Positions 9,121 to 46,987 of a stretch of 64,000 nucleotides of DNA are shown piece after piece. The notes below the pieces were generated by a model, which was not told where the DNA came from, ran no database searches, and saw only the letters and a list, made by a program, of their open reading frames with translations. Positions within the stretch are counted from its first letter, which is position 1, and every line of letters starts with the position of its first letter. The stretch lies in IMG/VR virus record IMGVR_UViG_3300024346_000007; one strand, 5' to 3'. The translations under genes and the position numbers were made by a program. This stretch comes from a virus.

Positions 9121-9837
9121 TTAGGCTATCGTAAATTCTTCATAAGCCTTATTCCATTCGTTATCTGATTCTTTGGGCTCCCATCCAGATATCCAAGGGC
9201 CTCCTAAAGTATAATGAAGTATCCCAGCATCTTTTTTTAGGGATTCTTCGTTAACATCTACTAAATGATTCCATTTATTATCCAATTCTCCAATCTCCTC
9301 ATCTTTCAGCCACTTAAAAGCATGTAAATCTCTTCCTGGCCAAGTGTTTATATTCTCTACTGTTAGACTCTGGTGTGCTGGGTGATCACAGTTTATCAAC
9401 ATAACAGAAGACCAGTTCTTTCTATTATAATACACAGATGCTTGGTCTACCATTTTTACTTCTGATTGACCTACTTTTTGTTGATGCTTGACTACCATTG
9501 CAGCGTATTGCGGATCAGCCTGTTCAAATAGCTCATTTATATCTTTTAAAGCAACTATATCACAATCTAAGAATAATGCCCACCCTTTAGTTAGAAAGGG
9601 AATAGCAAATCTAGATATAGAAAACTCTGTGGTCTGTGGGGCTTGAGATATGGGACAGTACATTTGACTGCCTCTCCATTCTATAGGTCTATCTAATACA
9701 TCTTTTATCTCAGCTAGCTTTAAAGAGTGTATTTCTATTTTATTAGGATCAGCTAATCTACTATTAATTGAATGTTCAGCTACATCATAAGCTAATACTT
9801 CTCTTGGGTCCCAACCTATATATACTTTATTCTTCAT
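9121..9837 (-). CDS. GT-A fold glycosyltransferase (GT8/CDI-like)
   Basis: VYIGWDPRE, TEFSISRF, FLDCD (DxD), KNWSSVML, WNHLV, LHYTLGGPW. Confidence 0.8.
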   Translation of the reverse strand: MKNKVYIGWDPREVLAYDVAEHSINSRLADPNKIEIHSLKLAEIKDVLDRPIEWRGSQMYCPISQAPQTTEFSISRFAIPFLTKGWALFLDCDIVALKDINELFEQADPQYAAMVVKHQQKVGQSEVKMVDQASVYYNRKNWSSVMLINCDHPAHQSLTVENINTWPGRDLHAFKWLKDEEIGELDNKWNHLVDVNEESLKKDAGILHYTLGGPWISGWEPKESDNEWNKAYEEFTIA

Positions 9838-11158
9838 TTTCTTTCATTGTTTTAGGACCTACTACCACATGCAGTTCTGGTCCTGTCATGTATATTTTTC
9901 CTACTGTGAAATAGTGTTGTAGTACTGTGTTCCACCAATCCATACCTTGTTGTATTAGATGAGTATTTCTACCATCAGCATATGTTTTTGAAGCTGGTCC
10001 TGTATGAATGACGAGATACCCAACTTGTTTGATGCACCGCCTCAAATCTCCTAATACATCTGGTAGTAGTTCCGGTTCTATATGTTCTAGCACATCTGTG
10101 CATATTACTATATCTGCTGGACGTGCCGACTCCTCTTTGCCGATTACTCCTGGGTCGTACTCCCATATAGGAAAAGGTAATGCTTTTCCCAAGTACCCTT
10201 TACCACATCCATAATCTAAAACTAATTTAGTGTTCAACGCCTCAGTTAACTTAATTACTAAATCAGCATATTTGCCACCACCTATACCATATACAGCATT
10301 GTCTTTATGTAATTGTTTATTTAAGTCTGCGTATTCTGGAGTTATTACTTGTGGCTTTTGGAAACCTATCACATTTTTATACTTCTCTTTCTTTTCTTCC
10401 GGAGTATGGTTCTTATACATTTCTTGTGTTAGCCCTTCTCCATATAGCGTAGCTTTAACTGCAGGTAATTGATCTAGCTCGTGCAGCACTTGTTTAGATG
10501 CTTCTAGCATTCCTGGGGTTGTTATGAATGTTTTATTGTTACACTCTACTTCACAATGTTTTTGATTACCATTTGGATGAGCACCAGCATGTCTATTATC
10601 ATTTTCTATACTCCCGTCTAGTCCAAATATATGTAGGTTTCTATATCCTAAAAAAGCTGCATTTGTTATGCATCTTAACCCAACATCGCATCCTCCTGTT
10701 ACTGCCCATTCTCCTGGGGGCATCATAGCTATCCCTTCTTCTGTCGAATCAAATACATGCCAGAGCTTTACATTATACCCTTCTAAATGTTCAAAGTATT
10801 TTGGATGACATGCGCTTGCTATTAGATATTGTACATCTTTATGCGGCTGTCCTAGTAATTCTATTTTGTGTGATCTTGGATCTACCTCTACGTGATAGTT
10901 AGGAATTATGCCTCTTTCTATTAAGAATTTGTGCGCCCCAGAACAGGACATCACAACTTTAAACTTTTTAATCTCTTCCCATGTGTGATTTAAAGAGGGG
11001 CCAAAACCTACAATTGCAATAGGCTCTTCTATTCTTTCTTCATTAAACTCTACCCTATCTTTTACTTTAGATATAGCATATCTTATTTGTTCATCCCTTT
11101 TCCATATAGGGATAACATATTTTACATCTTGCTTTTCGTTAATATCAAGCTTTTTCAT
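9827..11158 (-). CDS. Maf/MptE-like (MAF_flag10-type) domain fused to a class I SAM methyltransferase
   Basis: N-terminal IAIVGFGPSL...GIIPNYHVEVDPR...LGYRNLHIFGLD. C-terminal VLDYGCGKG and CTDVLEHIEP. Confidence 0.7.
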   Translation of the reverse strand: MKKLDINEKQDVKYVIPIWKRDEQIRYAISKVKDRVEFNEERIEEPIAIVGFGPSLNHTWEEIKKFKVVMSCSGAHKFLIERGIIPNYHVEVDPRSHKIELLGQPHKDVQYLIASACHPKYFEHLEGYNVKLWHVFDSTEEGIAMMPPGEWAVTGGCDVGLRCITNAAFLGYRNLHIFGLDGSIENDNRHAGAHPNGNQKHCEVECNNKTFITTPGMLEASKQVLHELDQLPAVKATLYGEGLTQEMYKNHTPEEKKEKYKNVIGFQKPQVITPEYADLNKQLHKDNAVYGIGGGKYADLVIKLTEALNTKLVLDYGCGKGYLGKALPFPIWEYDPGVIGKEESARPADIVICTDVLEHIEPELLPDVLGDLRRCIKQVGYLVIHTGPASKTYADGRNTHLIQQGMDWWNTVLQHYFTVGKIYMTGPELHVVVGPKTMKENEE

Positions 11159-11174
11159 AACAATTTTATATACG

Positions 11175-11205
11175 CAAAGATATTATCTTTAGTTGATTCT
11201 AGCAA
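11175..11205 (-). promoter_or_regulatory. Bacteroidetes primary-sigma promoter (-7 TATCTTTG, -33 TTG)
   Basis: Minus strand TTG-N20-TATCTTTG, 16 nt upstream of ATG 11158; matches the TAnnTTTG consensus. Confidence 0.65.
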
Positions 11206-12520
11206 CTCTAAAAAAAGAACCTCTAGCAATAACTAAAGTATTAGCAGCAGCTGATGATCTAGCTACAGGGTATATAGCTCCTGTATTTTGTGCATCTATT
11301 ATTCCATTAACCCTTATAAAGTGAAGACCTGTGGCACCGACAATAGATGACCATACTGCTACGTTTGAATCGCCTGTATCGAAATCACCTACTACCAGTG
11401 TAGAGAATGTTGAAGCACCTGTTTGATTGACAGATAAAGACCCGATCCACTGCCCTGCTACCCTGTTTGCTGTAGGCCATACCAGTCCAAAAGAATTACC
11501 AGTAGCGGCAGATACGGAATACATTAGTTGTGCTTCAAATGTATATATAACACCAGCACTAACAGAAGTAGTTAAACCCGATATTCCTGCTAAAGTAGCT
11601 GTATTAAGAGTGTTTGCTGTACTGACATAAACAGTTGGATTTACTGAGTTGGCCCCCCCTGGTATTGCACTTATCCTATTAGATAAGGCATTAATAGCAT
11701 TTTGCAATCCTACTTGAGGTGCGCCTCCAGGAGCTAATGCCGAAACAGTTGCAACAGTAGTACTTACTGCAGAGATTGCGTTTGATAGTAAGTTTATAGT
11801 AGGACTTGATATACTTTCACTTACGATTAAAGATCCTGAAAAAATACCACTTCCATTAACATCTAACGTAGCGTTTAAAGATCCAGATTTCATTATACCC
11901 ATTCTGCTTCCAGATATCTTTACATCTGGAGACCCTGAAGCATTTGAAAACAGATAAAGAGATTGGGAGGCTACTCCTGGTTGATAATATGCTGTATTAT
12001 TCCCTATATATAAATCCCCGCCTGTATTATACAAATATGCGTCTTTTGATGTTCCATAGCTGAACCCCTTAATGGTACTACTGCCATTAATACCCATATC
12101 TATAAAGTTACTAGCTTCGGTTCCTATATCCGAATAGGCTACGATATCCGTGGAAGCAGATATTCCGCTATTTAAATTCTGTACATATAATTCTACGTAC
12201 CCATTTTTATTTCCTATAAACCCGCCTGCGCTATTTACATCTGTTATATTATCTATATCAACAGTAAGACTTCCAGATATAACAACGTTCTGTGTTTTAT
12301 CTATATATAATACGTCCTTACTGCCAGAAGATATTACGAATATTTGATTAGCAGCGCCTACATCAGATATTTCCATTAGTCCTCCGGTACTTCCAGATAC
12401 TACTAATATAGCAGATCCGCTTCCTTTAACGTGAAGCACGTTAGAAGATCCAGACATTGCTGTGCTTCCGGTAACCTCTAATCTTCCTAAACTGCCTGTA
12501 TCTGTGTAAAATATTGCCAT
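11189..12520 (-). CDS. Tail fibre/spike-like virion protein
   Basis: Ser/Gly-rich. Has one copy of the repeat QNxxSGxxASxDIVAxxDxGxExxxxIDMGIN, found three times in the 24811-29214 fibre. Confidence 0.65.
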   Translation of the reverse strand: MAIFYTDTGSLGRLEVTGSTAMSGSSNVLHVKGSGSAILVVSGSTGGLMEISDVGAANQIFVISSGSKDVLYIDKTQNVVISGSLTVDIDNITDVNSAGGFIGNKNGYVELYVQNLNSGISASTDIVAYSDIGTEASNFIDMGINGSSTIKGFSYGTSKDAYLYNTGGDLYIGNNTAYYQPGVASQSLYLFSNASGSPDVKISGSRMGIMKSGSLNATLDVNGSGIFSGSLIVSESISSPTINLLSNAISAVSTTVATVSALAPGGAPQVGLQNAINALSNRISAIPGGANSVNPTVYVSTANTLNTATLAGISGLTTSVSAGVIYTFEAQLMYSVSAATGNSFGLVWPTANRVAGQWIGSLSVNQTGASTFSTLVVGDFDTGDSNVAVWSSIVGATGLHFIRVNGIIDAQNTGAIYPVARSSAAANTLVIARGSFFRVARIN

Positions 12521-12540
12521 ATACTATAAATATCTTATTT

Positions 12541-12741
12541 TTAATTACTAGGCGGTGCCACGTATGGATAAGGCAATGGCCACCCTTCTGGGGTTACATA
12601 GGGGCTGTCTTCGCTTACTATAGGCATTGTCATTATAGACGTACTTGGTGCATATGACATAGTATACAACAAGTACAATATTATCATTGCTACAAATATA
12701 CGAATAACACTTTTACTATTAATTGTTATTGTGTGTTTCAT
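12541..12741 (-). CDS. Small membrane protein
   Basis: Hydrophobic segment IFVAMIILYLLYTM; fills the gap in the operon. Confidence 0.5.
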   Translation of the reverse strand: MKHTITINSKSVIRIFVAMIILYLLYTMSYAPSTSIMTMPIVSEDSPYVTPEGWPLPYPYVAPPSN

Positions 12742-12750
12742 TATTTTATA

Positions 12751-13665
12751 TTAGAAAGTTCCATAATAAGAATTTATTATACCTGTCAACGCCGCTCTAT
12801 AGTCATATGTAGTAGTACTCTGAGGATAATGGATTACCTCTTGTATGTTTCCACTCCAAGGAAACGATGGAGGGCCACTACCTCCAAAAAATCCTAAGAA
12901 GACTGTGCCTAAATCCCCTGTTCCAGAAATTGCAGTTCCTGCAACAGCTGTGGCTCCGTTTGTTGCATTATTCACATAAACTTCTACGTTAGCAGATGTT
13001 CTTTGCGCGTAAGCAATGAACTGAGAGGTTCCTGGATTTGTTGGTCCCAAGTCTGTGCCAGTGCCTCCCACTGTGTTAAATCCTATAGATTCTATATTTG
13101 TAGAGTTTCTTCTAATATTCTGGCTTACGTTAAGTCCTGTGTAGGTCGTTCTTACCATTAGTCTTGTAGTAGTATCTGCTACTTGTCCAACAGCATAAGT
13201 TGACCAGAGTCCACTAGCGTCAGTTATTTTTGATGTTAATGTAAATAGACCGGCTAAACCATTATAAAAAACTGCTGGTCTACCATTCAAAACTCTTAAA
13301 CTTCCAGAAGATACTATGTAAGGTTCTTGGATTGTTGTGCCCCCAGGAACTTCAGCATTGTCTGTATTATCTACTTGATTATACCATATGTTTACATAGC
13401 CGGTACCGCTTCCAACAAAAGTTAATAATGATCCAGTATCAATCAATCCATCTGCTTGGAATCCTATGTCTTGAGTGGTGTTATCGCTATCTCTTCTCAC
13501 TCTCATACAGAAAGTAGCAGATTCTGAAAGCTTCCTTACGCTAAACGCAGCTGAGGATCCTGTATATATGTCTAATGGAGCCGGTATTGTATACGATACT
13601 CTTATAATGGATCTAAACACTCCATCGCGCACTCTAAAAAAACTATTATTAAATCTTAGTGCCAT
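12751..13665 (-). CDS. ConA/LamG-like (arabinofuranosidase-B-like fold) virion protein
   Basis: AAFSVRKL...MRVRRDSDNTTQDIGF...WYNQ...NGRPAV...GNIQEVIHY...INSYYG pattern. Confidence 0.6.
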   Translation of the reverse strand: MALRFNNSFFRVRDGVFRSIIRVSYTIPAPLDIYTGSSAAFSVRKLSESATFCMRVRRDSDNTTQDIGFQADGLIDTGSLLTFVGSGTGYVNIWYNQVDNTDNAEVPGGTTIQEPYIVSSGSLRVLNGRPAVFYNGLAGLFTLTSKITDASGLWSTYAVGQVADTTTRLMVRTTYTGLNVSQNIRRNSTNIESIGFNTVGGTGTDLGPTNPGTSQFIAYAQRTSANVEVYVNNATNGATAVAGTAISGTGDLGTVFLGFFGGSGPPSFPWSGNIQEVIHYPQSTTTYDYRAALTGIINSYYGTF

Positions 13666-13667
13666 AA

Positions 13668-16600
13668 TTAGGCTGTTTCTCCATGTTTAACTGCCACCCA
13701 ACTAGTACTTCCTGCTAATGCTGTATTACTATTTGCATTTATCACGAAAGATCCTGCTATTTTACTTTCTAAAGTCCATGATCTAGCATCCTCTCCTGTT
13801 ATAGCCACTGAGTAGTTTGCATCTGTAAACGCTGCTGCGAAAGTAACTGTGGCTTTCTTAGGGTTACCAGTGAAAGAACTGTTAGCTACCGATCCTGCTT
13901 TTGTGGCTAGTCCTCCACCAGACCCACCAGTTGCACTGATAGATGCTGTTGTATTGGTTACAGTAGCTGTTATATTGGTAGCAAACTCTAGATAGGTAAT
14001 ACCTGTGCCTTGTATAACACCGCCGTCAGCTACTGTCAAAGATATAGTAGAACCTGAAGATCCTGATGATCCAGTAGATCCTGAGGAACCAGATGATCCA
14101 GTAGATCCGGTAGACCCTGAAGATCCTGTTGAACCTGAGCTGCCTGAAGAACCTCTGCTACCTGAACTACCGCTTGATCCGCTAGTTCCTGAAGAACCAT
14201 TTTGACCAGATGATCCAGAGCTGCCTGCACTTCCTGATGTACCTGTTGATCCAGCGCTACCAGAAGTACCAGAAGAGCCGTTCTGTCCTGAGCTACCTGA
14301 TGATCCACTACTTCCTGAAGTTCCTGAAGAACCGTTTTGACCGCTAGAGCCAGATGTTCCGGAGGAACCATTCTGTCCTGAGCTACCTGAAGTTCCAGAA
14401 GACCCGTTCTGGCCACTTGACCCACTAGTACCAGAACTACCGTTTTGACCACTAGAGCCAGATGTTCCGGAGGAACCGTTTTGTCCAGAAGAACCGCTGC
14501 TTCCAGATGTACCGGTAGAACCTGATGAACCTGTTGAACCGGAACTTCCGCTTGATCCTCTACTACCTGAACTACCGCTTGATCCTGATGTACCAGTTGA
14601 TCCTGAGGAGCCTGATGTGCCTGAGGAACCATTCTGTCCTGAAGAGCCTGAAGAACCACTAGAACCAGTAGATCCTGAAGTTCCAGTAAAGCCAGATGTA
14701 CCAGAACTACCATTTTGACCACTAGATCCACTGCTTCCGGATGAGCCACTTGTACCAGTAGAACCAGATGTTCCAGAAGAACCGTTTTGTCCCGATGATC
14801 CACTAGAACCAGAAGTACCCGTAGAACCGGATGTACCAGAAGAACCGTTTTGACCACTAGATCCAGAGCTACCGCTAGTACCTGTACTTCCAGATGTGCC
14901 TGAACTACCATTTTGACCACTGGATCCAGATGATCCTGCACTACCACTAGTTCCTGTACTGCCTGAAGTACCTGAAGATCCATTCTGTCCTGAGCTACCA
15001 GATGATCCACTTGACCCACTAGTACCTGTAGAACCTGAGGTTCCTGAGCTACCGTTTTGTCCAGATGATCCGCTTGATCCTGAAGATCCTGAACTACCAT
15101 TTTGTCCTGAGCTGCCTGAGGAACCAGACGTACCAGAAGAACCTGCTGCACCTGCTGTATTATAAAAGAACTGTCCAGTAGCTGAGTCAACTACTACGAA
15201 TCGAGTTAATCCTGAATTTAAAGCTAAGTCTTTTACAGCTATAGAGCCAGTAATCTTTACACTACCTGTAAACTCATGATTATCTAATAAAGAATCTCCG
15301 AATACATTAGACCCACTAGAGTATAAAACTGATGAGCTTATAGTCTGAACTACTATAGTCTGGGCTGTTAAGGTTCCTCTTACTGTAAAGTTATCTGCAG
15401 AAGATGCTGTAAGAGCGTTTATAGCCCAACTAGCAGTCCCTGATAAAGATCCTGTAATAGATCCTAATACGTTTATGCTGCCTGTTACAACAACAGATCC
15501 TGTTATTATAGCAGACCCTGTTAATAATAATGTATCTACATTTGAAGAAAATAGTGTAGTTCCACTAGCACCAGATACACTTAAGGAACCTGTTATAATT
15601 GTACTACCTGACACACTTACTGCACCATTATTTACAACTAGGATAGCTGAAGCTGTGGCTGCATTATTAGAAGCATCTGCTACTAACACTCTTCCTATAG
15701 CTGGGTTACTTATTGTATTAAAGCCTGTACCAGATGATCCACTAGTGCCACCAGTTCCAGAGGAACCAGATGTGCCTGTTGAACCGCTAGAACCAGAAGT
15801 ACCTGTACTACCTGAAGATCCAGACGTACCTGTAGAGCCGCTAGAGCCTGAGGTACCGGAGCTTCCAGAAGAACCACTGCTTCCAGCTGTGCCAGAGCTT
15901 CCTGACGTGCCTGTAGAGCCGCTAGAGCCTGAGGTACCGCTTGTACCTGATGATCCAGTACTTCCAGAGGTTCCAGTGCTGCCTGAAGTACCTGAGGAAC
16001 CGTTTGCACCGCTAGACCCTGAAGAGCCAGATGATCCAGTAGATCCTGAAGTTCCAGTAGAGCCAGAGCTACCTGATGTTCCGGAACTACCACTAGTTCC
16101 TGTAGAGCCCGATGTACCTGTTGATCCAGATGTACCAGTTGAACCGCTGCTACCTGAGGAACCATTTTGACCAGAGGATCCACTACTTCCAGATGTACCT
16201 GTTGAACCACTAGATCCTGAGGTACCTGTGCTACCTGAAGAACCTGTTGAGCCAGATGAACCAGAAGTACCTGTAGAGCCTGATGTTCCACTAGTTCCTG
16301 TAGAACCACTACTACCAGTTGACCCACTTGATCCAGAAGAGCCTCTGGTTCCTGATGACCCAGAAGAGCCGGAAGTTCCCGATGTTCCTGTAGAACCGGA
16401 AGTACCGCTTGTTCCAGATGTGCCAGATGTAGCTGCTGTATATGAAGTTCCGTTTATTACTAAAGATCCAGATATTGATACTGAACCAGTAAATTCGTGA
16501 GTGTTTTGTACTACCGTACCAAAATGAGTAGATCCAGTTACGAATTCTACAGAAGCAGTAATAGTTTGAACTATTAAAGTTTGAGCTGTTAGGGTTCCCC

Positions 16601-19600
16601 TTACAGTAAAGTTATCTGCTGAAGATGCAGTAAACGCATTTAAAGCCCAACTTGCAGTACCTTGTAAAGATCCTGTAATAGACGGGGATATAATAGAAGA
16701 GGCGCTAACCTGTGCTACATTGTATATGTTATTTCCTCCTAGTCCTAAGTTACCAGACATTTGTCTAGTACCATTTACTAGAAGATACTGAGTGTGGTCG
16801 TCAGCACCTAACCCTAATAGGTTTCCGTGAGTGGCAGAGGCGTTAACTCCAGCAGCTCTAAAACCAATAATAGGTCTAATATCTTGTATCTCTATTATAT
16901 TAGCTGAACCTGATCTTACATAGATAGAGGCTAGAGATACGACACCATCACTAAAATATGTTGGAGGAGTAGGCAATGCTGCACCTTCAGCTTCTACTAA
17001 TGAATTGTACTGTGTTTGTCCTACAACTAAGAAGTATTCTTCATCAACACCATCCCCTACAAGATATAAAGTATGTTTAGTGTAAGCTGATGAGGATAGA
17101 GGAACTAAAACGTCACTTCCAGAATCAAAGGTATTAGAAGTTACAGTTGTGGTTTGAGATCTATTCCACCCTGATCCGCTTCTATAGTATTGTGTAAAGT
17201 TTATAGATCCTGTACCAGCTGGAGTGAAGTTATTTTCTGAGAAGAAGTAGCTACCTTGTGTTACGTCTAATTTAAAAGGAGTAACATTTTCAGATACTAT
17301 AGATCCATCAGCAAATACAGGTCCTAGGGCGTCTCTATTAAACTTAGATAGTTTATTAGACATGTGAGCCCCATCATATGGACTCTGATCAATAAATTCT
17401 ACCCCAGTAGCATTTGTTACTACTCTTCCTAATATAATGTTTTGTGTACTATTAGGAGCAGAACCTGCTGCTGATAATATACCACTCTCATCAAGATAGA
17501 TGTAATTATTTGTATTTGGAGATAGAGTTAATGTGCTATTAACCCAATCTACTCTTTGGTATACATCAGGGTTTATTGAATTTTCTAAGTAGCCAAATCC
17601 AGCTGCAGTGTTAATTGTTAAACTACCAGAAATAGTAATTTGACCCCCTTCCATTACACCCATTGAACTACCCTTAAAGATAAGGGTTGTAGCGTCTGTA
17701 TGAGTACCATCTGCAAATGTTACAGATAATTTTCTTGTGATATCATTTTCACCGTCAGCATCATCTAAGAAGTTCCAATAGAAATCTTCACTTGCATTAT
17801 TAATTTTAGAATGATCTGATACTCCTTGGTATCTACCTCTTGTAGTTGCATTTAATATATTAAAATCATAAGTAGTAGAGTCGTGTATCATTGATCCCAC
17901 TACTCTAAAGTTAGGACCTATTCCTACATTAGGTACTACATATCCATAATCCCAATCTTGAATATCAATAGCAGCTCCTTCTAATTGAGCTCCATTTTCT
18001 AATTTAACTGCTGTTGAATCAGTTGTACCGTCTCCAAGGAACTTAGATGTATATAAACTTAGGCTAGAGCTAGGACCTGTTACAAAGTTACCTATAGTAG
18101 CACTTGCTGAAGGGAATAGGTAGTAGTTTTCTACAGTAGTAGATACAGAACCCCCATTACTAGAGGAAATATAAGTTCCATAAGTAAAAGTACCGTTTAT
18201 ATCAACATATTCTCCATAGAATTGAGTGTCAGTAGTGTTTGCTAAAACAGTTATACCTCTATCACAATCGTAAATTGATATTTTATGTACCTGAGCAAAA
18301 TCACCAATATCATCAACATATATTGCTGAGTATCCTGATCCTGCATTTGCTAAGCTCAAAAATGATACTTCATTATTGATGCCCATCTTAATGATGTGCT
18401 GGGTAGAACTGCTTGGGAATATCTGTGTAGTTTGAATGTTACTACCAACAATACTTACATATGGTCTACCAGTTAAGTCAATTGTATTTTCTGTGTATTG
18501 GCCAGGACCAACTTCAATTACATAGCGATTATTCTCGTTTGACCCACTAATCCAAGCTACAGATGCACTGATTGAGGTGAAATCTCCTCCTTTTTTAGCT
18601 ACAAACAATCTTCTTGGATCTTGTCCTACTTCATATAAAGGCGCATCTGTGGGGATAATGGTTTTTAAGAAGTTATCTGTACCTTGTACTTTACCTGTAG
18701 ATCCTGTATGTTCTATTAATACGTCTGTTGTACAGTTTTCAAAGTTAAGTGCAATTGCATCTATACTTGGTGCTGATCCGGTTTGTGGAGCCCATATACC
18801 ATTTATCCACCTTTGGAAGTTAACACCTGTTAAACGAAGCTGTCCCCCGTTATATACTTTAAATCCAGTACCTCTAGCAGTTCCTGTCGATCTTGTTAGC
18901 AAACATCCATTAACAATGAATGTACAACCAGGAGCGTCTGCTAAAGCAAATATTTGGTTGTTGTCACTTCCTGCTACACCACCATTTGTAGAAGTGACGT
19001 TTCTCAATTGCATCCTACCAATACCTCCGCTTGAACCAGAAGTTACATGGAATCCTACATCAAATGATTTTAATAAGCCTGCGTCTGTGTATCCTCCGTA
19101 TTTAACGTTAGAACATTGTAATATACAGTTTCCACTACTTCCGCTACCAATTACTTTAGCGTTTGTATAGTTAGTTCCAAAGCGAACGTTCTCTACGTAA
19201 GCAATTGCATTTCTTTGAGGGGTTGTAGCAGAAGAGTACACTACCGCAGAAGATCCTGTAAAAGTAGTTCCTTGAATCTGCATGTCTATGACCATAGATT
19301 GGTCACTCATTACAAAGATACTTGAACTAGGGTTAGAGGCAGAAACTACAGTTGATATAGAACTGTCTCCTTTAATTGCTACCCAAGAAGGAACAGTAAT
19401 AGTATCTTCTATGTATATTCCAGGAGCTACACTTACTGTGTAAGTATTGTTCTCAGAAGCATCTGTGATGCTAGATATGGCAGTCTTAATAGCGTTATAC
19501 CTAACTCCTCTACTTCCAGAAAGTCCTACGTTGACTATATTTTTTGTGAAAGTAAGATCATTGATAGTACTATACTCTACTGTACTACTAGCTGTGTTGT

Positions 19601-21132: not shown

Positions 21133-21135
21133 AAT

Positions 21136-33137: not shown

Positions 33138-33138
33138 A

Positions 33139-35700: not shown

Positions 35701-35718
35701 TAAAACCTATTTTAAGTG

Positions 35719-35726
35719 CAAAGATA
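35719..35726 (-). promoter_or_regulatory. Bacteroidetes -7 promoter element TATCTTTG
   Basis: TATCTTTGCAC 18 nt upstream of ATG 35700. No clear -33 element and no late motif in this gap. Confidence 0.6.
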
Positions 35727-35743
35727 TGTAATTTATTTTATTA

Positions 35744-38835: not shown

Positions 38836-38836
38836 A

Positions 38837-40348
38837 TTAACTTAAATTAAAACGTGATTTATATGCGCGGTAGTTATTTGCTATTTCTGATTGGGTTAGA
38901 GCTCTGTTATATACTTTAACTACAGATATTTGTCCTCCCCATCTTTCACCATCTCCAACCCCATGAGCTCCTATTCTTAAGAATTCCCAATTTGTTATAT
39001 CAGAACAGACTGTATTGACCGTTTGAGATACTCCATTAACGGAATATATGATGGATCCTCCATTATAAGAAGCAACAACATGGTTCCATTGGTTTGCAGG
39101 TACAGTTAATGATCCTCCTCCACATGGCCAAAAGCCTAAAGTGTTATTAGGGTATATATATAAAGCATCATCTGAATTGAGGTTGCTTTGGACTATAGCT
39201 CTATATCCGCCATTATTTCTAGTATCATATACAATAGCTTCTATAGTCACATTTGATATGGTTTGTGCTGAGAAGGAAGTATTTATATAGTCATTTGTTG
39301 CATCAAATGTTATTTGGCTATTGGAATCAAAAGATACATTAGTAACGTCTATTGTTTTTCCAGTTACACTTAAATCCAATAAAGAATTTGTTACAGATCT
39401 AGTACCAGCTACAAATGTAGTTCTATGGGAATTTTGTTCTACTTGTATATTTGATATATCAACATCCATATTTGCAGCAGATGGAAACCAATATGAAATT
39501 AAAGCATTATGTGTTGCAGTAAATGTGTAGCTATTTCTTACCCACTCTCCCAAGGCTCCCCAAGTAGCATTCATACTATAATAACTATACCCTTCAGGGC
39601 CACTATAGTTATAATTTTGAAATTGTATATAGTTTCCTACTGCAGCAGCGTTGGCTGCCCTAGCCCAAAAGGATACCGTTGTGGTTGTTGATGGAGTTGT
39701 TGTAGCATCTACTCCATAAGCCATTCCATCAGTTACACCATCTGGTCTATGCCAATGTAATCTTACACAATCAGTTACAATTGCAGTATAGGGATCTTTA
39801 AATCCATTTGAAATTATTTCTTTAACTAACCCCGAATTAGGTACATGGGGAGGGCCCCACCACATAGTAGGAAAACTTGTAGAATTTATAGAAACTCTTG
39901 TATCAGTAGCTATGCTATCGTACACTTTAAAGGTTCCAGTAGATGTACTTATATACCCTTGAGAACCATCTTGGGAACCATTATATTCATGTAAACTAAA
40001 TTGAGTGTCAGATATTTTTTTAACAAAATAATTTGTTCCATTAGTAACACCGCCTCCAGTAGTCTGAGGTGTAACAGCGTCATATGTTCTTAAAGGGTGC
40101 GTTCCTGCTGTTGTTACGACATTGCTACTTACACTAGAGATTGTTCCTATACTAAAATAATTACCTCCGTTATATTGATTAACATTAAAAGTTCCCCAAC
40201 CATTTCCTATTTTAGGAATAGCATTAGTTTCTGGTGTTGGGAGAAGATTAGTAGTCGGCTCTCCTATATAGGAATTCCTTATATCTGCTACATCATAAGC
40301 AAATATTAGTGAGTCATTAACTGTATTAGGTCCTGATGATGATGGCAT
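38837..40348 (-). CDS. LamG-domain protein with inserted carbohydrate-binding-like domains
   Basis: LIFAYDVAD...FDATNDY...VYNRALTQSEIANNYRAYKSRF. Confidence 0.75.
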   Translation of the reverse strand: MPSSSGPNTVNDSLIFAYDVADIRNSYIGEPTTNLLPTPETNAIPKIGNGWGTFNVNQYNGGNYFSIGTISSVSSNVVTTAGTHPLRTYDAVTPQTTGGGVTNGTNYFVKKISDTQFSLHEYNGSQDGSQGYISTSTGTFKVYDSIATDTRVSINSTSFPTMWWGPPHVPNSGLVKEIISNGFKDPYTAIVTDCVRLHWHRPDGVTDGMAYGVDATTTPSTTTTVSFWARAANAAAVGNYIQFQNYNYSGPEGYSYYSMNATWGALGEWVRNSYTFTATHNALISYWFPSAANMDVDISNIQVEQNSHRTTFVAGTRSVTNSLLDLSVTGKTIDVTNVSFDSNSQITFDATNDYINTSFSAQTISNVTIEAIVYDTRNNGGYRAIVQSNLNSDDALYIYPNNTLGFWPCGGGSLTVPANQWNHVVASYNGGSIIYSVNGVSQTVNTVCSDITNWEFLRIGAHGVGDGERWGGQISVVKVYNRALTQSEIANNYRAYKSRFNLS

Positions 40349-40349
40349 G

Positions 40350-41045
40350 TTATATGAATCGTGTTTTAGTTGCGTTGTAGTTTTGCAATATCTCTTTACT
40401 TGTTAAGACTCGATTATATATGTGGCAGGCTGCTGTGTATCCGCTTGTAAATATTGTATTACTAATACTACCTAAACACCAACCATTTGATGATGATCTT
40501 AAAATTGTTCTTCCTGCAACTGATGTTGTTGTATTTTCAAAAACACCATTTACATACACTTGAAGTGATACACCAGCAGTCCAAACACCTGTAATATAAT
40601 ACCATTTATTAAGTGCTAATACTGATGTTGAGTCAACGCTTATTCCAACTGTTGATGGAGAGGTTGGAACGACTCCAATAATTGCATATCCAGTGTCTCT
40701 TACTGCATTAAATAAACTCCATCCATTACCAAACCCATCTCTTCCTCTTGATAAAATATATTTAATTTCAGAATAATTATCATTTTTAAACCAAACAGAA
40801 AATGTATAATTATCAGTTGCACTTCCAAAATAGGTAGTTGTAACAACATCGTCACTTCCATCAGTAAAAATAGAACCCCAATTACCAGAATTAAACGTAG
40901 GTCCGTTTGTTAGAGTTCCTAAATTACTATTGCCACTAATATCATACCATGTAGTACCGCTTCCTGGGTAGGACTTCTTATCGGCAGCATCTAATAATAA
41001 TACTAACCCATTTCTAACGATAGTAGGTCCATATATTTCAGCCAT
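40350..41045 (-). CDS. LamG/ConA-like lectin domain protein
   Basis: GLVLLLDAA...WYDISGN...IYNRVLTSKEILQNYNATKTRF. Confidence 0.8.
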   Translation of the reverse strand: MAEIYGPTIVRNGLVLLLDAADKKSYPGSGTTWYDISGNSNLGTLTNGPTFNSGNWGSIFTDGSDDVVTTTYFGSATDNYTFSVWFKNDNYSEIKYILSRGRDGFGNGWSLFNAVRDTGYAIIGVVPTSPSTVGISVDSTSVLALNKWYYITGVWTAGVSLQVYVNGVFENTTTSVAGRTILRSSSNGWCLGSISNTIFTSGYTAACHIYNRVLTSKEILQNYNATKTRFI

Positions 41046-41050: not shown

Positions 41051-44000
41051 TTATTTATTTGTCAAATAGTCAATTTGTTTTTGTAAATCTTCTATTTGTT
41101 TTTGTTGTTCTTTTATACCTTCTATCAACAAAGGTATTATTTTTTCATACTTAACTGCTTTATACCCACTCTCTCTTGTAGTAACTACCTCTGGTAGTAC
41201 TTTTTCAAGTTCTTGAGCTATTACCCCTACGTCATGTCCTTGGTTTCCGTGATATTCTGGGTTGGTAAGCCAGTCAAACTCAACTCCCCTTATTTCATTT
41301 ATCTTTCCTATAGCATTTGCTATTTCTGTTACATTAATCTTAAACCTTTTGTCAGATGTGCTATAAGCAACTATATCATTTGTTGCATCTATCCTTCCTC
41401 TGGTAGTGGATGGTACAATATTTCCCACAGCTAATGAACCTGTGTATATTAAAACGTTACTTCCAGACACTCTTAGTGTAGATCCTGCTGAACTATACTG
41501 TCCTAAAGTAACAGTGTAGTCTGAGAATGCTTCTATTGCAGGTAGACCTGCTATTGTATTGGCAGAGAATATAGAGTCAGATAGGTCATCTGTGATCTCA
41601 AATAATCTACCGTTATTTCCATCTACTGAGAATAGAGAAGATGATGCTAAACTTCCTGACCCTATTATGTTTACTACGTTTGTAGAGCCTGATACTTGGA
41701 GTTTTGCTGTTGGTGTTGTGGTGCCTATACCTATGTCACCACCTTGAGTCATTACGAATCTGTTGGTAGATACTGATTCGTTACCTGTAAATAAAACTAC
41801 AAAATCGACAGCATTACACTCATGGTTAACTTTTAATCCAATAGTAGTGCCTGCTGTGCTCCCAGCTCTATAGACGTGTAAATCTGCTTGCGGACTTGTA
41901 GTACCTATGCCAACATTACCTGATGGTTCTATTAATAATCTTACGTTACCTCCGGCACTTCCATTTTCATTACCTATGACAAATTTACCTGAGTTTCCCC
42001 ACCCACCTTGTCCTACTACCCAAGAAGTATTAGTAGTACTTCCAGCAGTGTCAGAATAAAATCCCATAGCAGCCTCACCATTTGTTGAGGTTGGGCTTAT
42101 TCTTACTGATCCATAAGATAAAGTTCCAGCTACATGAAGTAAAGATTGAGGACTTGTAGTACCTATACCTACGTAGCCAGCAGAGGTGATACGCACTTTT
42201 TGTGAAGGATCTGCTGCATCACTGTTGGTATAAAAATCAAGGTAACCTGCACTATTCCCATCAGTGGCATTCTCTTTTGCCCCAACAATTGAACCAAATG
42301 GTCTGTAAGATCCTGCGGTATTATATCTGCCTCCTAAATGTAACGCTCCTCCCTTTCCTGAGCCAAATGTTCTATTGTCTAAGAATATAGGCCCATTTGT
42401 TGTTGAAGCATCATAAGATACAGCAAACTTTGACAGATAAGGTGTAGTTGTTTCACCTATTAATAAACTACCACCATTAGTTTGCATGGAAATGTTTTTC
42501 CATGCAACTCCTTGATGTACGGCATTAATCTGGGCAGCATCATTTGTTGTATCGTATCCTAATACTAATGCTTTACTAGGAGTTACTGTATTTGATACCC
42601 ATAAACCATATGTAGCTTCACTATTTTGTGTTAAAGAAGGACCTACAATATGTAATTTAACTGCTGGTGATGTAGTACCTATGCCCATCTTTCCATCAGA
42701 AGCTATATAAACAGTGCCCGGAACTCCATTAGCACCGTTAAAGTATATAGGCTTAGCTGCGTATTCACCTATGTAGAAAGTACTATCTGTTTCTAATATT
42801 AGATCATTAGTACCATAGATGCTTGCGTATCCTGATAATCTGTGTACATTTAAAGCATTTGATGCTGACGCTCCACTAATGTGTAGTTTAGCGTTTGGCG
42901 TCGTGATACCAATACCGACATTATTGCCGTTATTATATATCATAGCAGTGGTATTTTCTAAAGCATTACCTGCTGCATTATATCTTGGTACATAGTACGC
43001 TGTACCTGTTATAGTAGGGCTTACACCTGATGATCCGGATGTACCAGATGATCCATTCTGACCAGATGAGCCTGAAGAACCATTTTGGCCACTAGAACCA
43101 GAAGAACCTGAAGAGCCAGAAGTGCCAGTTGAACCGCTAGAGCCTGATGACCCATTCTGACCAGATGAGCCTGAAGAACCTGTGCTACCACTTGATCCAG
43201 TAGAACCTGAAGATCCAGAAGTGCCAGTTGAGCCAGAAGATCCTGAGGAGCCAGTAGAGCCTGAAGAGCCTCTTGATCCGCTTGAACCAGATGATCCAGA
43301 AGAACCTGAAGAGCCACTAGTGCCAGAAGATCCTGCAGCACCAGAAATATTATAATATAGTTGACCAGTTGTTGGATCTATTACTACAAACTGAGTTAGG
43401 CCTGCGTTAAGAGCTAGATTTTTTATAGAAACAGAGCCAGTAACTTTAACACTGCCTGTAAATTCATGGCTGTCAGATAAATTATCACCAAATATATTAG
43501 AACCACTAGAGTATATTACAGAGGAGCTTATAGTCTGTACTATTAAAGTGTTTGCTTGAATATTACCAGTTGCAAGAATGCTTCCTGTTAGTAATAACAC
43601 CCCATTATTAAAGCTCATACTGACTGATGCTGTAGCAGCATTTGTGCTATTATCAGCTAGTAGTATTCTACCTATAGCAGGAGTATGTATTGTATTGAAA
43701 CCAGTACCAGATGATCCAGATGTACCAGATGTGCCAGTACTTCCTGAGGTTCCTGAAGAACCAGACGTTCCTGTAGATCCGCTAGAACCTGAAGTTCCGG
43801 TAGATCCAGAAGAACCAGAAGTTCCTGTTGAACCTGAGCTACCTGAAGATCCTCTAGATCCAGAAGAACCAGATGATCCTGATGTACCTGATGTACCTGT
43901 AGAACCCGAAGTTCCGCTAGTTCCAGATGAACCGTTTTGTCCAGAGGATCCAGATGTCCCTGATGATCCTGAAGTTCCAGTAGAGCCTGAAGATCCGGAG

Positions 44001-46987
44001 GTACCAGTAGACCCAGATGATCCCGAAGTTCCACTTGTGCCGGAAGAACCATTTTGACCGGATGATCCAGATGAACCGTTTTGACCAGAAGAACCAGATG
44101 AACCAGTTGAACCAGAGCTACCAGAAGTGCCAGTTGAGCCAGATGATCCTGAGGTACCTGAAGTTCCTGATGAACCGGAAGTGCCACTAGTACCAGATGA
44201 ACCGTTTTGTCCAGATGATCCTGAGGTACCGCTAGATCCAGATGAACCTGAACTACCTGAAGTACCCGAAGATCCAGAGGTACCTGTACTACCTGAAGTT
44301 CCAGATGTACCGCTAGTACCTGAGCTACCGCTTGTACCTGAACTTCCAGAGGAGCCAGATGTACCAGAAGAACCAGAAGTACCCGAAGTTCCTGAAGAAC
44401 CTGATGTACCAAAAGTTTGTCCACTAGTACCTGCTGAACCAGATGTGCCTGCTGAACCAGAGGTTCCAGTAGAACCTGACGTACCTGCAGATCCAGAAGT
44501 ACCTGAAGTGCCAGAAGATCCAGATGTGCCTGAAGTTCCGCTGCTTCCTGATGATCCTGAGGTGCCAGTACTACCTGAGGATCCTGAAGACCCTCTAGTG
44601 CCAGAGGAGCCAGATGTACCAGAAGAACCAGAAGTACCTGATGAGCCTGAGCTACCAGATGAACCAGAAGTGCCAGAGGAACCGGATGTTCCAGATGATC
44701 CTGAGGAGCCAGCTCCTGTTACGTAACTTTTAATACCGTATATTCTTAGACTTTCTACGTACCATGTGCCTGCACCTGCTGTAGCAGTAACAGATACTGT
44801 TATTGCTTGACTTGTAGTTGCTAGTTCACTATATTTTAATACAGCTCCCATAGCAAATTGATCCCCAGCACCTGTAGCATCCCCTCTTAAAACTATTGAT
44901 CTTTTTACTACACCACCATATGAAAGATTAAATGTAGCTGTTGAGTTTGTATTTGCTTGAGTTAAATAGTCAATCTCAGCTTCAGCCATAATAAAATCAT
45001 ATGTATTGGCTGAGATTGTAAATGTTTTAGCGCTTGCATTTGTTGCTGTTCCCGTTGTTTCGATTTCATCTCTATATATTAGAGCAGAAGCCGATGGTAT
45101 AGTTACTGGGTCATATGAAAAACTAGTACCAGAAGTTCCAGATGATCCATTCTGACCAGAGGAGCCGGAAGAGCCGCTTGATCCAGAAGTACCGCTTGAC
45201 CCAGAAGAACCTCTAGATCCTGAAGAGCCAGATGATCCACTAGTACCTGAACTACCTGTTTCTCCTGAGGAGCCGGATGACCCTGTTTGACCAGATGATC
45301 CACTAGTACCTGTGGTTCCTGAGGTGCCGGTAGATCCAGATGATCCAGTAGTTCCAGAAGTTCCGCTAGTACCTGTAGACCCAGATGTACCAGAAGATCC
45401 TGTTACCCCACTAGTACCTGATGATCCACCTGTGCCAGAAGTACCAGTTGATCCAGATGTGCCAGATGTACCAGTTGATCCAGAAGAGCCGCTAGTTCCG
45501 GTGGAGCCGCTAGAACCAGATGTACCAGAAGAACCTGATGAGCCTGAACTTCCTGTAGAACCTGATGAGCCGCTAGTACCTGTAGAACCTGATGTTCCAG
45601 CAGTGCCAGATGATCCAGAGGAACCATTTTGACCAGATGATCCAGAGGTTCCGGATGATCCAGAAGATCCATCTCCACCACTAGCACCTGCTAGGTTAAC
45701 TTGCCAAGAACAATAATTTCCACTTCCGACAGTTACATTTGGAATACTATATACTAACACTCCTGTAGATGGGTTATATGATACTACACTTGCTTCTTGG
45801 TAATTATTAACATCATAAGACATTAAGAAAGTCTGTGCAGTAGAATAAGACAATCCTAACTCTACAGTAATAGATCCACTTTGTCCTAAAGTTGCACAAG
45901 TAGTGGAGGTAGTTAAGTATCTATCTCCAGATCTTCCAGCTGATCCAGATGTTCCACTAGTGCCAGATGTACCTGTTGATCCAGATGTTCCACTAGTGCC
46001 AGAAGTACCAGTAGAACCTGCAGTGCCAGATGTTCCCGTAGAACCAGATGAACCAGAAGTTCCGCTTGTTCCGGTAGATCCAGATGTACCTGAGCTGCCA
46101 CTAGTTCCAGAAGAGCCAGATGAGCCGCTAGTTCCAGAAGATCCTGAGGAGCCTGAGCTACCACTAGTACCTGTTGATCCAGATGAACCAGTACTTCCTG
46201 AACTACCTGAGGTTCCAGTTGAACCGGATGAACCAGTAGATCCAGAAGAGCCAGTAGATCCAGACGTACCTGTTGAACCGCTAGAGCCTGTTGATCCAGA
46301 TGTGCCACCACTTCCAGAAGAACCAGAAGTGCCTGATGTGCCACCACTTCCAGAAGAGCCTGAGGTTCCGGATGAACCAGATGTGCCGTCACTTCCAGTA
46401 GATCCGGAGGTTCCACTAGTTCCAGATGTTCCGCTAGCCCCACTGGATGAGTATTTGAACTCTCCAGTAATGGGATCTACTACAACAAATAAATCAGCAC
46501 TGCTTGTATATTGTAAGTGTGGATCATATATTGATCCTGATATATATAAAGATCCTGTAAATTCATGTGTATCATCTATGGTATCTCCAAATTTAGTAGA
46601 TCCAGATGCATATATTATTGACGAAGATTGATAAGTAACTATCAACATATCAATAGAAGCAGTACCACGTAGTACTAAATCTCCATATATAGACTGACTA
46701 CCATAAAAAATATTAGACCCCGTGGTAGCTAAAGATTCAGATTTTGCTACAAATACAGGATCTACTTCATCAAAATGAGATGCAGATATTGCATAACTTG
46801 CACTTATAGCCCATGATGCTGTTTGAGATACTCCTTCAAAAGACCCTGAGAAGGTTCCATTAAAAGAGCCTGTAAATGATCCTGTAAAAGAAGAGCTAAC
46901 AGAGTTAGCTACGATTGTATTGTATACCGTAACATTGTTATATGTAGCATTCCCATCCTGAGGGGTTATCTGGAGCCAAGTAGCCAT
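41051..46987 (-). CDS. Long tail fibre (1978 aa) with four Gly-Ser/Thr tracts and a C-terminal intramolecular chaperone (peptidase S74)
   Basis: GNVGIGTTSP repeats. C-terminal YSTSDKRFKIN...IRGVEFDW...GVIAQELEKVLPEVV...VKYEKIIPLLIEGIKE. Confidence 0.9.
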   Translation of the reverse strand: MATWLQITPQDGNATYNNVTVYNTIVANSVSSSFTGSFTGSFNGTFSGSFEGVSQTASWAISASYAISASHFDEVDPVFVAKSESLATTGSNIFYGSQSIYGDLVLRGTASIDMLIVTYQSSSIIYASGSTKFGDTIDDTHEFTGSLYISGSIYDPHLQYTSSADLFVVVDPITGEFKYSSSGASGTSGTSGTSGSTGSDGTSGSSGTSGSSGSGGTSGTSGSSGSGGTSGSTGSSGSTGTSGSTGSSGSTGSSGSTGTSGSSGSTGSSGSTGTSGSSGSSGSSGTSGSSGSSGTSGSSGTSGSTGTSGTSGSSGSTGTSGTAGSTGTSGTSGTSGSTGTSGTSGTSGSAGRSGDRYLTTSTTCATLGQSGSITVELGLSYSTAQTFLMSYDVNNYQEASVVSYNPSTGVLVYSIPNVTVGSGNYCSWQVNLAGASGGDGSSGSSGTSGSSGQNGSSGSSGTAGTSGSTGTSGSSGSTGSSGSSGSSGTSGSSGSTGTSGSSGSTGTSGTSGSTGTSGTGGSSGTSGVTGSSGTSGSTGTSGTSGTTGSSGSTGTSGTTGTSGSSGQTGSSGSSGETGSSGTSGSSGSSGSRGSSGSSGTSGSSGSSGSSGQNGSSGTSGTSFSYDPVTIPSASALIYRDEIETTGTATNASAKTFTISANTYDFIMAEAEIDYLTQANTNSTATFNLSYGGVVKRSIVLRGDATGAGDQFAMGAVLKYSELATTSQAITVSVTATAGAGTWYVESLRIYGIKSYVTGAGSSGSSGTSGSSGTSGSSGSSGSSGTSGSSGTSGSSGTRGSSGSSGSTGTSGSSGSSGTSGTSGSSGTSGTSGSAGTSGSTGTSGSAGTSGSAGTSGQTFGTSGSSGTSGTSGSSGTSGSSGSSGTSGSSGTSGTSGTSGSTGTSGSSGTSGSSGSSGSSGTSGSSGQNGSSGTSGTSGSSGTSGTSGSSGSTGTSGSSGSTGSSGSSGQNGSSGSSGQNGSSGTSGTSGSSGSTGTSGSSGSTGTSGSSGTSGSSGQNGSSGTSGTSGSTGTSGTSGSSGSSGSRGSSGSSGSTGTSGSSGSTGTSGSSGSTGTSGSSGTSGSTGTSGTSGSSGTGFNTIHTPAIGRILLADNSTNAATASVSMSFNNGVLLLTGSILATGNIQANTLIVQTISSSVIYSSGSNIFGDNLSDSHEFTGSVKVTGSVSIKNLALNAGLTQFVVIDPTTGQLYYNISGAAGSSGTSGSSGSSGSSGSSGSRGSSGSTGSSGSSGSTGTSGSSGSTGSSGSTGSSGSSGQNGSSGSSGSTGTSGSSGSSGSSGQNGSSGSSGQNGSSGTSGSSGVSPTITGTAYYVPRYNAAGNALENTTAMIYNNGNNVGIGITTPNAKLHISGASASNALNVHRLSGYASIYGTNDLILETDSTFYIGEYAAKPIYFNGANGVPGTVYIASDGKMGIGTTSPAVKLHIVGPSLTQNSEATYGLWVSNTVTPSKALVLGYDTTNDAAQINAVHQGVAWKNISMQTNGGSLLIGETTTPYLSKFAVSYDASTTNGPIFLDNRTFGSGKGGALHLGGRYNTAGSYRPFGSIVGAKENATDGNSAGYLDFYTNSDAADPSQKVRITSAGYVGIGTTSPQSLLHVAGTLSYGSVRISPTSTNGEAAMGFYSDTAGSTTNTSWVVGQGGWGNSGKFVIGNENGSAGGNVRLLIEPSGNVGIGTTSPQADLHVYRAGSTAGTTIGLKVNHECNAVDFVVLFTGNESVSTNRFVMTQGGDIGIGTTTPTAKLQVSGSTNVVNIIGSGSLASSSLFSVDGNNGRLFEITDDLSDSIFSANTIAGLPAIEAFSDYTVTLGQYSSAGSTLRVSGSNVLIYTGSLAVGNIVPSTTRGRIDATNDIVAYSTSDKRFKINVTEIANAIGKINEIRGVEFDWLTNPEYHGNQGHDVGVIAQELEKVLPEVVTTRESGYKAVKYEKIIPLLIEGIKEQQKQIEDLQKQIDYLTNK
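43025..46440 (-). repeat. Four coding (GSS/GTS)n tracts (~43025-43335, 43700-44710, 45125-45670, 45930-46440)
   Basis: Gly-X-Y periodicity interrupted by globular domains; boundaries approximate. Confidence 0.85.

Follow-up and report, generated by a model that had tools for sequence, protein, structure and literature searches.

Two sets of enzyme genes lie among the fibre genes of an uncultured aquatic T4-like phage in a 64,000-nucleotide stretch of viral DNA (IMG/VR record IMGVR_UViG_3300024346_000007, hereafter the window). The first, operon A (29309-35700), encodes a glycosyltransferase of the TibC/Aah type, and comparison with relatives in phages and bacteria suggests that it acts as the writer for collagen-like fibres made of Gly-[Ser/Thr]-[Ser/Thr] triplets, with which it is coupled across diverged phage lineages. 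The second, operon B (9121-11158), combines a Maf-like enzyme with a GT8 glycosyltransferase and appears to go with a fibre of another kind. We consider it probable, from the gene content and its distribution, that the two are independent, soluble, cytoplasmic protein O-glycosylation modules, each encoded beside the fibre that it most likely modifies. The genes of both enzyme sets and of the fibres occupy one 38-kb stretch with neck and sheath genes on either side. The two modules are neighbours in this window, and each comes with a fibre of its own.

A preliminary description of the window had already placed two enzyme operons inside its structural module, and every open reading frame (ORF) named there is present at its coordinates on the minus strand, where all the real genes of the window lie. 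The enzyme domains that it assigned to both operons were confirmed with Pfam or NCBIfam models, apart from the GT-A domain, which was recognised from its predicted fold. The genes inside each operon abut or overlap and, in operon A, they read as follows in the order of transcription, with overlaps of 4, 4 and 44 nucleotides between neighbours:

33139-35700, minus strand: GT4 (Glycos_transf_1, residues 171-296), FkbM (462-621) and Methyltransf_24 (679-797) domains in one protein
32307-33182, minus strand: GT-A fold glycosyltransferase, nearest to GT6 alpha-1,3-Gal/GalNAc transferases (AlphaFold model, Foldseek)
31387-32310, minus strand: FkbM-family methyltransferase
29309-31390, minus strand: GT4 domain (residues 153-302) fused to a TibC/Aah-type domain (residues 337-693)

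Three fibres with several hundred Ser/Thr residues in Gly-X-Y tracts and a protein rich in Thr and Pro had also been noticed, and all four were recovered:

13668-20822, minus strand: fibre 1, 2384 residues, two Gly-X-Y tracts of 603 residues with 356 Ser/Thr
24811-29214, minus strand: fibre 2, 1467 residues, one Gly-X-Y tract of 204 residues with 130 Ser/Thr
41051-46987, minus strand: fibre 3, 1978 residues, five Gly-X-Y tracts of 807 residues with 491 Ser/Thr
35744-37075, minus strand: Thr/Pro-rich protein, 443 residues (Thr 24%, Pro 17%), whose globular parts are joined by linkers with repeats of the [11 protein letters not shown] type

Together the three fibres contain 1614 residues of Gly-X-Y tract, 977 of which are Ser or Thr. 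The Gly-X-Y periodicity is unbroken, with tracts of 33-123 triplets, and the fibres match the PF01391 Collagen family with E-values of 2.5e-80, 1.8e-27 and 4.8e-103. Their triplets are almost only GSS, GTS, GST and GQN and Pro makes up 1.6-1.7%, so that the X and Y positions are not marked by proline or other known helix-stabilising residues. All six Ser codons and every Thr and Gly codon are used, and the DNA copies are only about 60-65% alike, which indicates that the tracts are kept at the protein level and do not result from recent slippage. Fibre 3 ends with a Peptidase_S74 intramolecular chaperone domain (residues 1878-1935), typical of trimeric phage fibres, and no recognised trimerisation domain was found in fibres 1 and 2. 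Fibre 2 begins 95 nucleotides downstream of operon A. The Thr/Pro-rich protein is encoded by the first gene of the operon, is found also in two other loci (L002 and L007) and is a candidate second substrate of module A.

The pairing of enzyme and fibre was examined in relatives of the TibC-type domain, which we collected from 48 IMG/VR loci (37-80% identity); a megablast search of operon A against 50,697 phage records gave zero matches. An ORF with at least 30 Gly-X-Y residues lies within 10 kb in 30 of these 48 loci, often as the next gene, and encodes up to 3333 residues. We also defined a strict DNA pattern for the G-[ST]-[ST] tract, (GGN WSN WSN)x5 within 10 kb of the gene. This pattern was found in 23 of the 48 TibC-type loci, and further off in three more records, and in none of the 48 loci of the Maf-like enzyme, which are also fibre regions of aquatic myoviruses and served as a control. 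After clustering at 70% identity, the pattern accompanies 10 of 19 TibC-type clusters versus none of 29 Maf-like clusters (Fisher p 1.4e-5), and, in a quick tree of the enzyme, loci with the pattern are spread over seven or more deep branches. The proposal that such enzymes would co-occur with GSS-repeat fibres in related phages is thus borne out for the TibC-type gene and not for the Maf-like gene. In the same way, the idea of a writer encoded with its substrate is retained, on comparative grounds, for the TibC-type operon with its GSS fibres, and is not supported for the Maf-like/GT8 operon as far as these fibres are concerned.

The gene order itself is conserved in the closest relative (L002, 80% identity), which has, as in the window, a fibre, a Thr/Pro-rich protein, the three-domain enzyme, GT-A, FkbM, the GT4-TibC-type fusion and a fibre. 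In the cultured Microcystis phage Mel-JY01 (L001, PP395634.1), a 1016-residue open frame (2-3049, plus strand) lies two genes upstream of a 1226-residue fused enzyme (GT4-FkbM-TibC-type); it consists of 40% Ser/Thr and 25% Gly, with 606 residues in Gly-X-Y, and runs off the start of the linear record. This frame is unannotated in the record, which instead lists, on the other strand, "hypothetical proteins" rich in Pro (1-651 and 739-2298) that resemble shadow frames of the collagen-like gene. In the capsid clade to which the window belongs, six of 50 records contain the pattern, all of them close kin of the window. Two of these hold the TibC-type gene (51% and 80% complete), and the other four, without it, are fragments 21-42% complete, of which at least one ends inside a fibre gene. 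The eight clade records that are at least 49% complete and have no TibC-type gene are all devoid of the pattern. Two huge phages were also encountered: a 735-kb uncultured phage (L236, LR756501.1) carries a TibC-type gene (3116-5212, minus strand) and, about 5 kb off, a gene for a 699-residue protein with a 105-residue Gly-X-Y tract, and the second (L237, LR756504.1) carries a TibC-type gene with no tract within 10 kb.

The same pairs are found in bacterial chromosomes. A single-protein search of prokaryote genome contigs returned nothing, and a profile built from 16 phage TibC-type domains succeeded, detecting at least 538 relatives in genomes taken one per species; the counts that follow refer to the best 80 of them. 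The strict pattern lies within 10 kb of the gene in 20 of the 39 most similar relatives, versus none of the next 41, which belong to Burkholderia, Lentisphaeria and Selenomonadales and are presumably classical adhesin-modifying enzymes. Chromosomes of Methylococcales, other Gammaproteobacteria and Arenicellales have a stand-alone enzyme next to one or two small genes for Gly-Ser/Thr collagen repeats, in a setting of housekeeping genes (L170, 9974-12041; L184, 8506-11875; also L157, L158, L183 and L194). Two contigs, one of 2.7 Mb from Methylococcales and a gammaproteobacterial one of 308 kb, show such an enzyme of 371-373 residues flanked by PF01391 genes encoding 126-293 residues, in a neighbourhood made up of lgt, thymidylate synthase, pyrophosphatase, alkaline phosphatase, a LysR regulator and a histidine kinase. 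Since these pairs lie in non-phage DNA and the association of enzyme and tract spans 30% to 66% G+C, neither base composition nor the plastic fibre region of phages can explain the pairing. In L184, a DUF6502 gene stands between the enzyme and the collagen-repeat genes.

By its sequence, the TibC-type domain is a genuine member of the TibC/Aah family. Residues 350-691 of the 29309-31390 product reach 275.4 bits on TIGR04414 (hepto_Aah_TibC), whose cut-off is 200, and cover positions 25-373 of the 374 in this model. Residues 337-690 align with TibC residues 27-384 (phmmer against structures 4rap/4rb4, E 6e-50), a span that starts within the N-terminal barrel and stops near the C-terminus. The residues with a role in TibC (PMC4358343) correspond to the following ones in the window:

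TibC Asp-110, catalytic base: D421
TibC Thr-226, beta-phosphate ligand: T537
TibC Lys-230, beta-phosphate ligand: K541
TibC Trp-305, heptose O4 ligand: W612
TibC Cys-339, 342, 358 and 370, iron ligands: C647, C650, C664 and C676
TibC Pro-300, stereoselectivity: Ser-607, as in Aah
TibC Arg-286, hydrogen bond to adenine N1 and basis of ADP-sugar specificity: Val-593

The four-Cys iron site, noted at the first inspection of the window, is therefore conserved. In 35 distinct phage relatives, the Asp, the Lys, the Trp and the four Cys are invariant, and the position of Thr-226 is Thr in 32 and Ser in three.

This comparison bears on another explanation, in which the enzymes would remodel the host surface (lipopolysaccharide (LPS) O-chain, core or capsule), for example to block superinfection, and the fibres would not be the substrate. 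Such a role has been published for clusters of glycosyltransferase genes, chiefly GT8, that pelagimyophages and cyanomyophages carry in the hypervariable region with their fibre genes (PMC7029224), and GT4, GT8 and GT9-like proteins are typical LPS enzymes. The TibC-type domain indeed matches the LPS heptosyltransferase families WaaC and RfaQ, yet only weakly, with about 20 bits, far under their cut-offs, as opposed to 275 bits on the protein-heptosyltransferase model. The domain also keeps the iron finger, which binds the protein substrate in TibC (PMC4358343). No flippase, polymerase, ligase or membrane-spanning enzyme was found in the window, no membrane-spanning segment being present in any enzyme of either operon, and the pairing with collagen repeats exists even in bacterial chromosomes away from LPS clusters. 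We thus give little credence to a host-surface role for these enzymes, and the published O-chain reading (PMC7029224) fits the GT8 enzyme better than the TibC-type one.

The 32307-33182 product of operon A has no Pfam, NCBIfam or PHROG match. Its AlphaFold model, obtained with an alignment of nine phage homologues (pLDDT 81), resembles GT-A enzymes of the GT6 type (1g8o, the bovine alpha-1,3-galactosyltransferase; ABO; BoGT6a) with Foldseek E-values of 3e-7 to 1e-6 and a TM score of about 0.5. A DxD motif (D101-x-D103) is present, both Asp being invariant in nine sequences, and the initial GT-A assignment was upheld by this fold match together with the motif. In six other loci (L013, L023 and L030-L033), this GT-A domain precedes the TibC-type domain as an N-terminal fusion in one polypeptide, which indicates that the two domains work together.

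Operon B and the gene upstream of it have a different profile:

9827-11158, minus strand: Maf-type MptE-like/DUF115 domain (residues 36-190) fused to a class I S-adenosylmethionine (SAM) methyltransferase (residues 297-415)
9121-9837, minus strand: GT8 glycosyltransferase, 29.8 bits against a cut-off of 24.3, overlapping the end of the Maf-like gene by 11 nucleotides
11189-12520, minus strand: Ser/Ala-rich fibre of 443 residues, with Gly-Ser repeats of the beta type in its N-terminal part, a segment rich in Ala and Ser, and a C-terminal domain (residues 225-443) that is conserved

The 443-residue Maf-like protein reaches 74 bits on PF01973 (MptE-like; cut-off 34.6) and also matches Methyltransf_23. 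Its best sequence match is the Magnetospirillum Maf structure 5mu5 (phmmer E 3.7e-6), to which it aligns over residues 268-426 of 666 only. With its structural model (pLDDT 89), Foldseek likewise ranks 5mu5 first (E 1.4e-9); archaeal MptE kinases, methyltransferases and sialyltransferases come next. The label Maf-like given to it at the outset therefore holds for the catalytic domain and not for the whole protein, as the flagellin-binding flanks of real Maf proteins are absent.

We collected 48 IMG/VR relatives of this Maf-like/methyltransferase fusion (44-81% identity). Their neighbours include a Ser/Ala-rich phage fibre, GT8, gp15-like and NUDIX genes, and a GT8 gene follows the Maf-like gene in 20 of the 48 loci. 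In 25 of the 40 loci with upstream DNA, the gene ending right before the Maf-like gene belongs to the family of 11189-12520, as judged by an iterated search (E 1e-19 to 1e-102). These partner proteins have 173-1286 residues, with 12-21% Ser and 13-31% Ala; the part common to all corresponds to the last ~200 residues of the 11189-12520 product, and the longer relatives have many copies of the Ala/Ser-rich segment. As this conserved order suggests, the Maf-like enzyme would most likely act on the 11189-12520 fibre and not on the collagen-like fibres.

The preliminary description had envisaged a single system, in which both operons act together on the three GSS fibres and the Thr/Pro-rich protein. 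All the genes do lie in one 38-kb stretch, the Maf-like operon is just 2.5 kb from fibre 1, and Maf enzymes modify Ser/Thr of flagellin (PMC3426422, PMC4065374). Against this stand the absence of the G-[ST]-[ST] tract within 10 kb in all 48 Maf-like loci, the absence of a Maf-like gene within 10 kb in all 48 TibC-type loci, and the conserved upstream partner that the Maf-like gene has of its own. Moreover, module A is present and PF01973 absent in G007 (80% complete), the nearest relative of the window that is close to complete. The closest Maf-like records (L108 and L147) are fragments 17-26% complete without a TibC-type or capsid gene and are uninformative on co-occurrence. A joint system is for these reasons unlikely in our opinion, and the separate distributions indicate separate modules that happen to share one phage.

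The comparisons show which domains the enzymes have, that their catalytic and iron-site residues are conserved and that the genes are linked in phages and bacteria; from this we infer the acceptors, the sugars and the purpose along the following lines. The fibre polypeptides would be made in the host cytoplasm late in infection, and it is in the cytoplasm, before export, that TibC/Aah and Maf enzymes modify their natural substrates (PMC4358343, PMC4065374). In module A (29309-37075), the TibC-type GT-B domain would add the first sugar to Ser/Thr hydroxyls of the proline-free G-[ST]-[ST] tracts of the three fibres, and possibly to the Thr/Pro-rich protein. Three transferase domains (the fused GT4, the GT6-like GT-A and the second GT4) could then extend this glycan, and two FkbM domains and one Methyltransf_24 could methylate or cap it. 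In parallel, the Maf-like/methyltransferase and GT8 enzymes of module B (9121-12520) would decorate the Ser/Ala-rich fibre encoded just upstream. As for purpose, we favour the idea that dense glycans would stabilise and shield a collagen helix devoid of proline. Stabilising and shielding of collagen helices by glycans has precedents in the Thr-glycosylated cuticle collagen of worms and in the BclA protein of Bacillus.

A bolder extension, which we regard as a tentative possibility, is that one separate branch within the TibC/Aah family is a dedicated collagen O-glycosyltransferase of many aquatic phages and free-living Gammaproteobacteria, whose dense glycans replace the role of hydroxyproline so that proline-free Gly-Ser/Thr triple helices fold and remain stable. 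A Maf-type writer would then serve a second fibre class, giving two orthogonal glycan codes per virion.

Several points weigh against fibre glycosylation by these operons. Nine of the 19 TibC-type clusters have no pattern within 10 kb, and one large record (G056, the record of locus L020, IMGVR_UViG_3300034013_000869; 175,660 bp, 85% complete) has a TibC-type gene with FkbM and GT4 partners and no tract anywhere, which means that the link between enzyme and tract is not obligatory. For all known TibC/Aah members, the substrates are the beta-helices of autotransporters and not collagen-like tracts (PMC4358343). In TibC, Arg-286 reads adenine, and its Ala mutant loses activity wholly or largely (PMC4358343); this position is Val-593 in the window and Arg in just 11 of the 35 phage relatives. 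In addition, fibre genes and accessory-enzyme genes both gather in the plastic region of T4-like phages, so that some chance co-location is expected. Finally, the whole case is built on sequence and gene neighbourhood, and that for module B on gene order.

Part of these points would suit an explanation by co-location only, in which the enzymes act on another virion protein, a small molecule or DNA, and the tracts are unmodified flexible spacers. Both gene classes would then be accessory cargo of the plastic region, clusters without a nearby tract and a record such as G056 would be expected, and the proline-free GSS tracts might be disordered and not triple-helical. However, the Maf-like loci are fibre regions of aquatic myoviruses as well and never showed the pattern, the minimal bacterial pairs lie among housekeeping genes, the association persists over the full G+C range given above, and the tracts are under selection on the protein and not on the DNA. 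Mere co-location is in our judgement a poor candidate, and modification of the fibres by the TibC-type operon is the reading that we retain. DNA glycosylation was set aside as a target, there being no pointer to it in the window and the lead enzyme coming from a protein-modifying family.

The nature of the donor sugar is a separate matter. The preliminary description had put forward heptose, and this suggestion is not supported by the comparison. With Arg-286 replaced by Val, the donor of the TibC-type domain need not be ADP-heptose, and G007 has no PF01370 or PF01467 and no epimerase or nucleotidyltransferase genes. Heptose is thus an unproven extrapolation from precedent. The remark that the window has no sugar-nucleotide synthesis genes is in agreement with our results, as none of these families was detected among the window ORFs scanned, a few small head-module ORFs being outside the scan. 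Given this and G007, donors would come from the host. Among the relatives G007, G001, G051 and Mel-JY01, an epimerase cluster exists only in G051 and a weak cytidylyltransferase-like match only in Mel-JY01. In the bacterial relatives, the Arg-286 position is Arg in 10 of the 22 enzymes beside collagen-like genes versus 48 of the 58 others; at the position of Pro-300/Ser-294 (607 in the window), the residue is Gly in 19 of those 22 versus Ser in 46 of the 58. These substitutions are hints that the collagen-associated branch of TibC-type enzymes may use a different donor.

Compared with TibC-TibA and Aah-AIDA-I of E. coli (the BAHT enzymes, PMC4358343), the system of the window is alike in its catalytic Asp, its Thr/Lys pair, its Trp and its four-Cys finger. 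It is also alike in having a cytoplasmic enzyme encoded beside a repetitive Ser-rich surface fibre, here a putative substrate, that is hyper-modified before assembly or export. It differs in that the partner is a Gly-X-Y collagen-like fibre of the virion, whereas theirs is the passenger of a beta-helical autotransporter; no Pfam match to an autotransporter family was found among the window ORFs scanned, and the neighbours of the TibC-type gene are collagen-repeat fibres. It differs further in the Val at position 286 and in the GT4 fusion, which stands among extending glycosyltransferases and methyltransferases, so that an oligosaccharide would be expected rather than a single heptose.

The Maf flagellin O-glycosyltransferases (5mu5; Aeromonas Maf1, PMC3426422, PMC4065374) share with the Maf-like enzyme the central catalytic domain and a weaker similarity to sialyltransferases, and they too are cytoplasmic enzymes encoded beside a Ser/Thr/Ala-rich filament protein. 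They have 632-666 residues versus 443 here, where the flanking domains are replaced by the SAM methyltransferase. The partner in the window is a phage fibre, and neither flagellar nor nonulosonic-acid synthesis genes were found in the window.

Phage enzymes that O-glycosylate their own virion proteins are described for mycobacteriophages of the Che8, Corndog and Myrna type (Freeman et al. 2023, as cited in PMC12619734). There too, glycosyltransferases and methyltransferases are encoded in or beside the structural genes; the targets are the C-termini of capsid and tail-tube proteins and the enzymes are of other families, whereas we propose fibre tracts and TibC- and Maf-type enzymes. Our literature searches brought up no description of a TibC-type enzyme in phages or of one paired with collagen-like proteins, and a literature search on Mel-JY01 gave nothing relevant. 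Outside phages, BclA of Bacillus anthracis has GXT repeats bearing rhamnose-anthrose glycans, and Mimivirus has collagen-like fibrils that are glycosylated. In both cases a Gly-X-Y protein of the particle surface has its repeat densely O-glycosylated by enzymes encoded nearby, with some sugars methylated. Their transferases belong to other families, and their repeats are rich in proline (GPT) or use hydroxylysine, as opposed to the proline-poor fibres and the TibC-type enzyme found here. Virion glycosylation in mycobacteriophages and glycosylated collagen-like fibres in Bacillus spores and Mimivirus are therefore known already, and TibC/Aah enzymes are known only with autotransporters.

If the fibres are glycosylated as proposed, phage-encoded virion glycosylation would no longer be confined to actinobacteriophages and would include large aquatic myoviruses with Gram-negative or cyanobacterial hosts, and autotransporter adhesins would not be the only class of substrates in the TibC/Aah family. 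The stability of proline-free collagen-like helices would be explained, and the usual view that the glycosyltransferase genes clustered near the fibres of marine and freshwater T4-like phages modify the host O-antigen would have to be revised. Host recognition, the stability of the particle and the sticking of virions to organic matter would all be affected. The two- to three-gene units of enzyme and collagen repeat in bacteria would offer a very simple test bed.

The region in which the modules lie is the structural module of a contractile-tailed phage (myovirus), whose main genes, the first five assigned with PHROGs, are:

61354-62934, minus strand: terminase large subunit
59450-61306, minus strand: portal
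51432-53060, minus strand: major head protein
49410-50633, minus strand: head-tail adaptor
5133-7379, minus strand: tail sheath
1596-2420, minus strand: T4 baseplate protein
47275-48531, minus strand: gp15-like protein, weak match

By the capsid protein, the nearest cultured relatives are Flavobacterium phage vB_FspM_immuto (54% identity) and Mel-JY01 (52%). The distance from the capsid gene to the sheath gene is about 44 kb in the window versus about 5 kb in Mel-JY01, the extra stretch being the fibres and the enzymes. PHROGs assigned no function to 11189-12520, 12751-13665, 32307-33182 and 35744-37075, and a scan of the window for tRNA genes found none.

Further genes stand around the fibres:

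40350-41045, 38837-40348 and 37624-38835, minus strand: Laminin_G_3 (concanavalin-A-like) proteins
23348-24034 and 22629-23345, minus strand: Laminin_G_3 proteins between fibres 1 and 2
24047-24844 and 21136-21810, minus strand: virion structural proteins (phrog_24074/8510)

The Laminin_G_3 proteins of 37624-41045 are likely fibre-associated or receptor-binding parts, and the five Laminin_G_3 domains could be either receptor-binding tips or binders of fibre glycans. Laminin_G_3 proteins are found again next to the TibC-type gene in 7-8 other loci (among them L005, L006, L008, L010, L011, L013 and L024). Between the portal and capsid genes, a 951-residue head-module protein (54944-57799, minus strand) is without a Pfam or PHROG match. 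A GIY-YIG/NUMOD homing endonuclease gene (21807-22562, minus strand) is inserted among the fibre-associated structural genes, as an intruder outside the glycosylation system.

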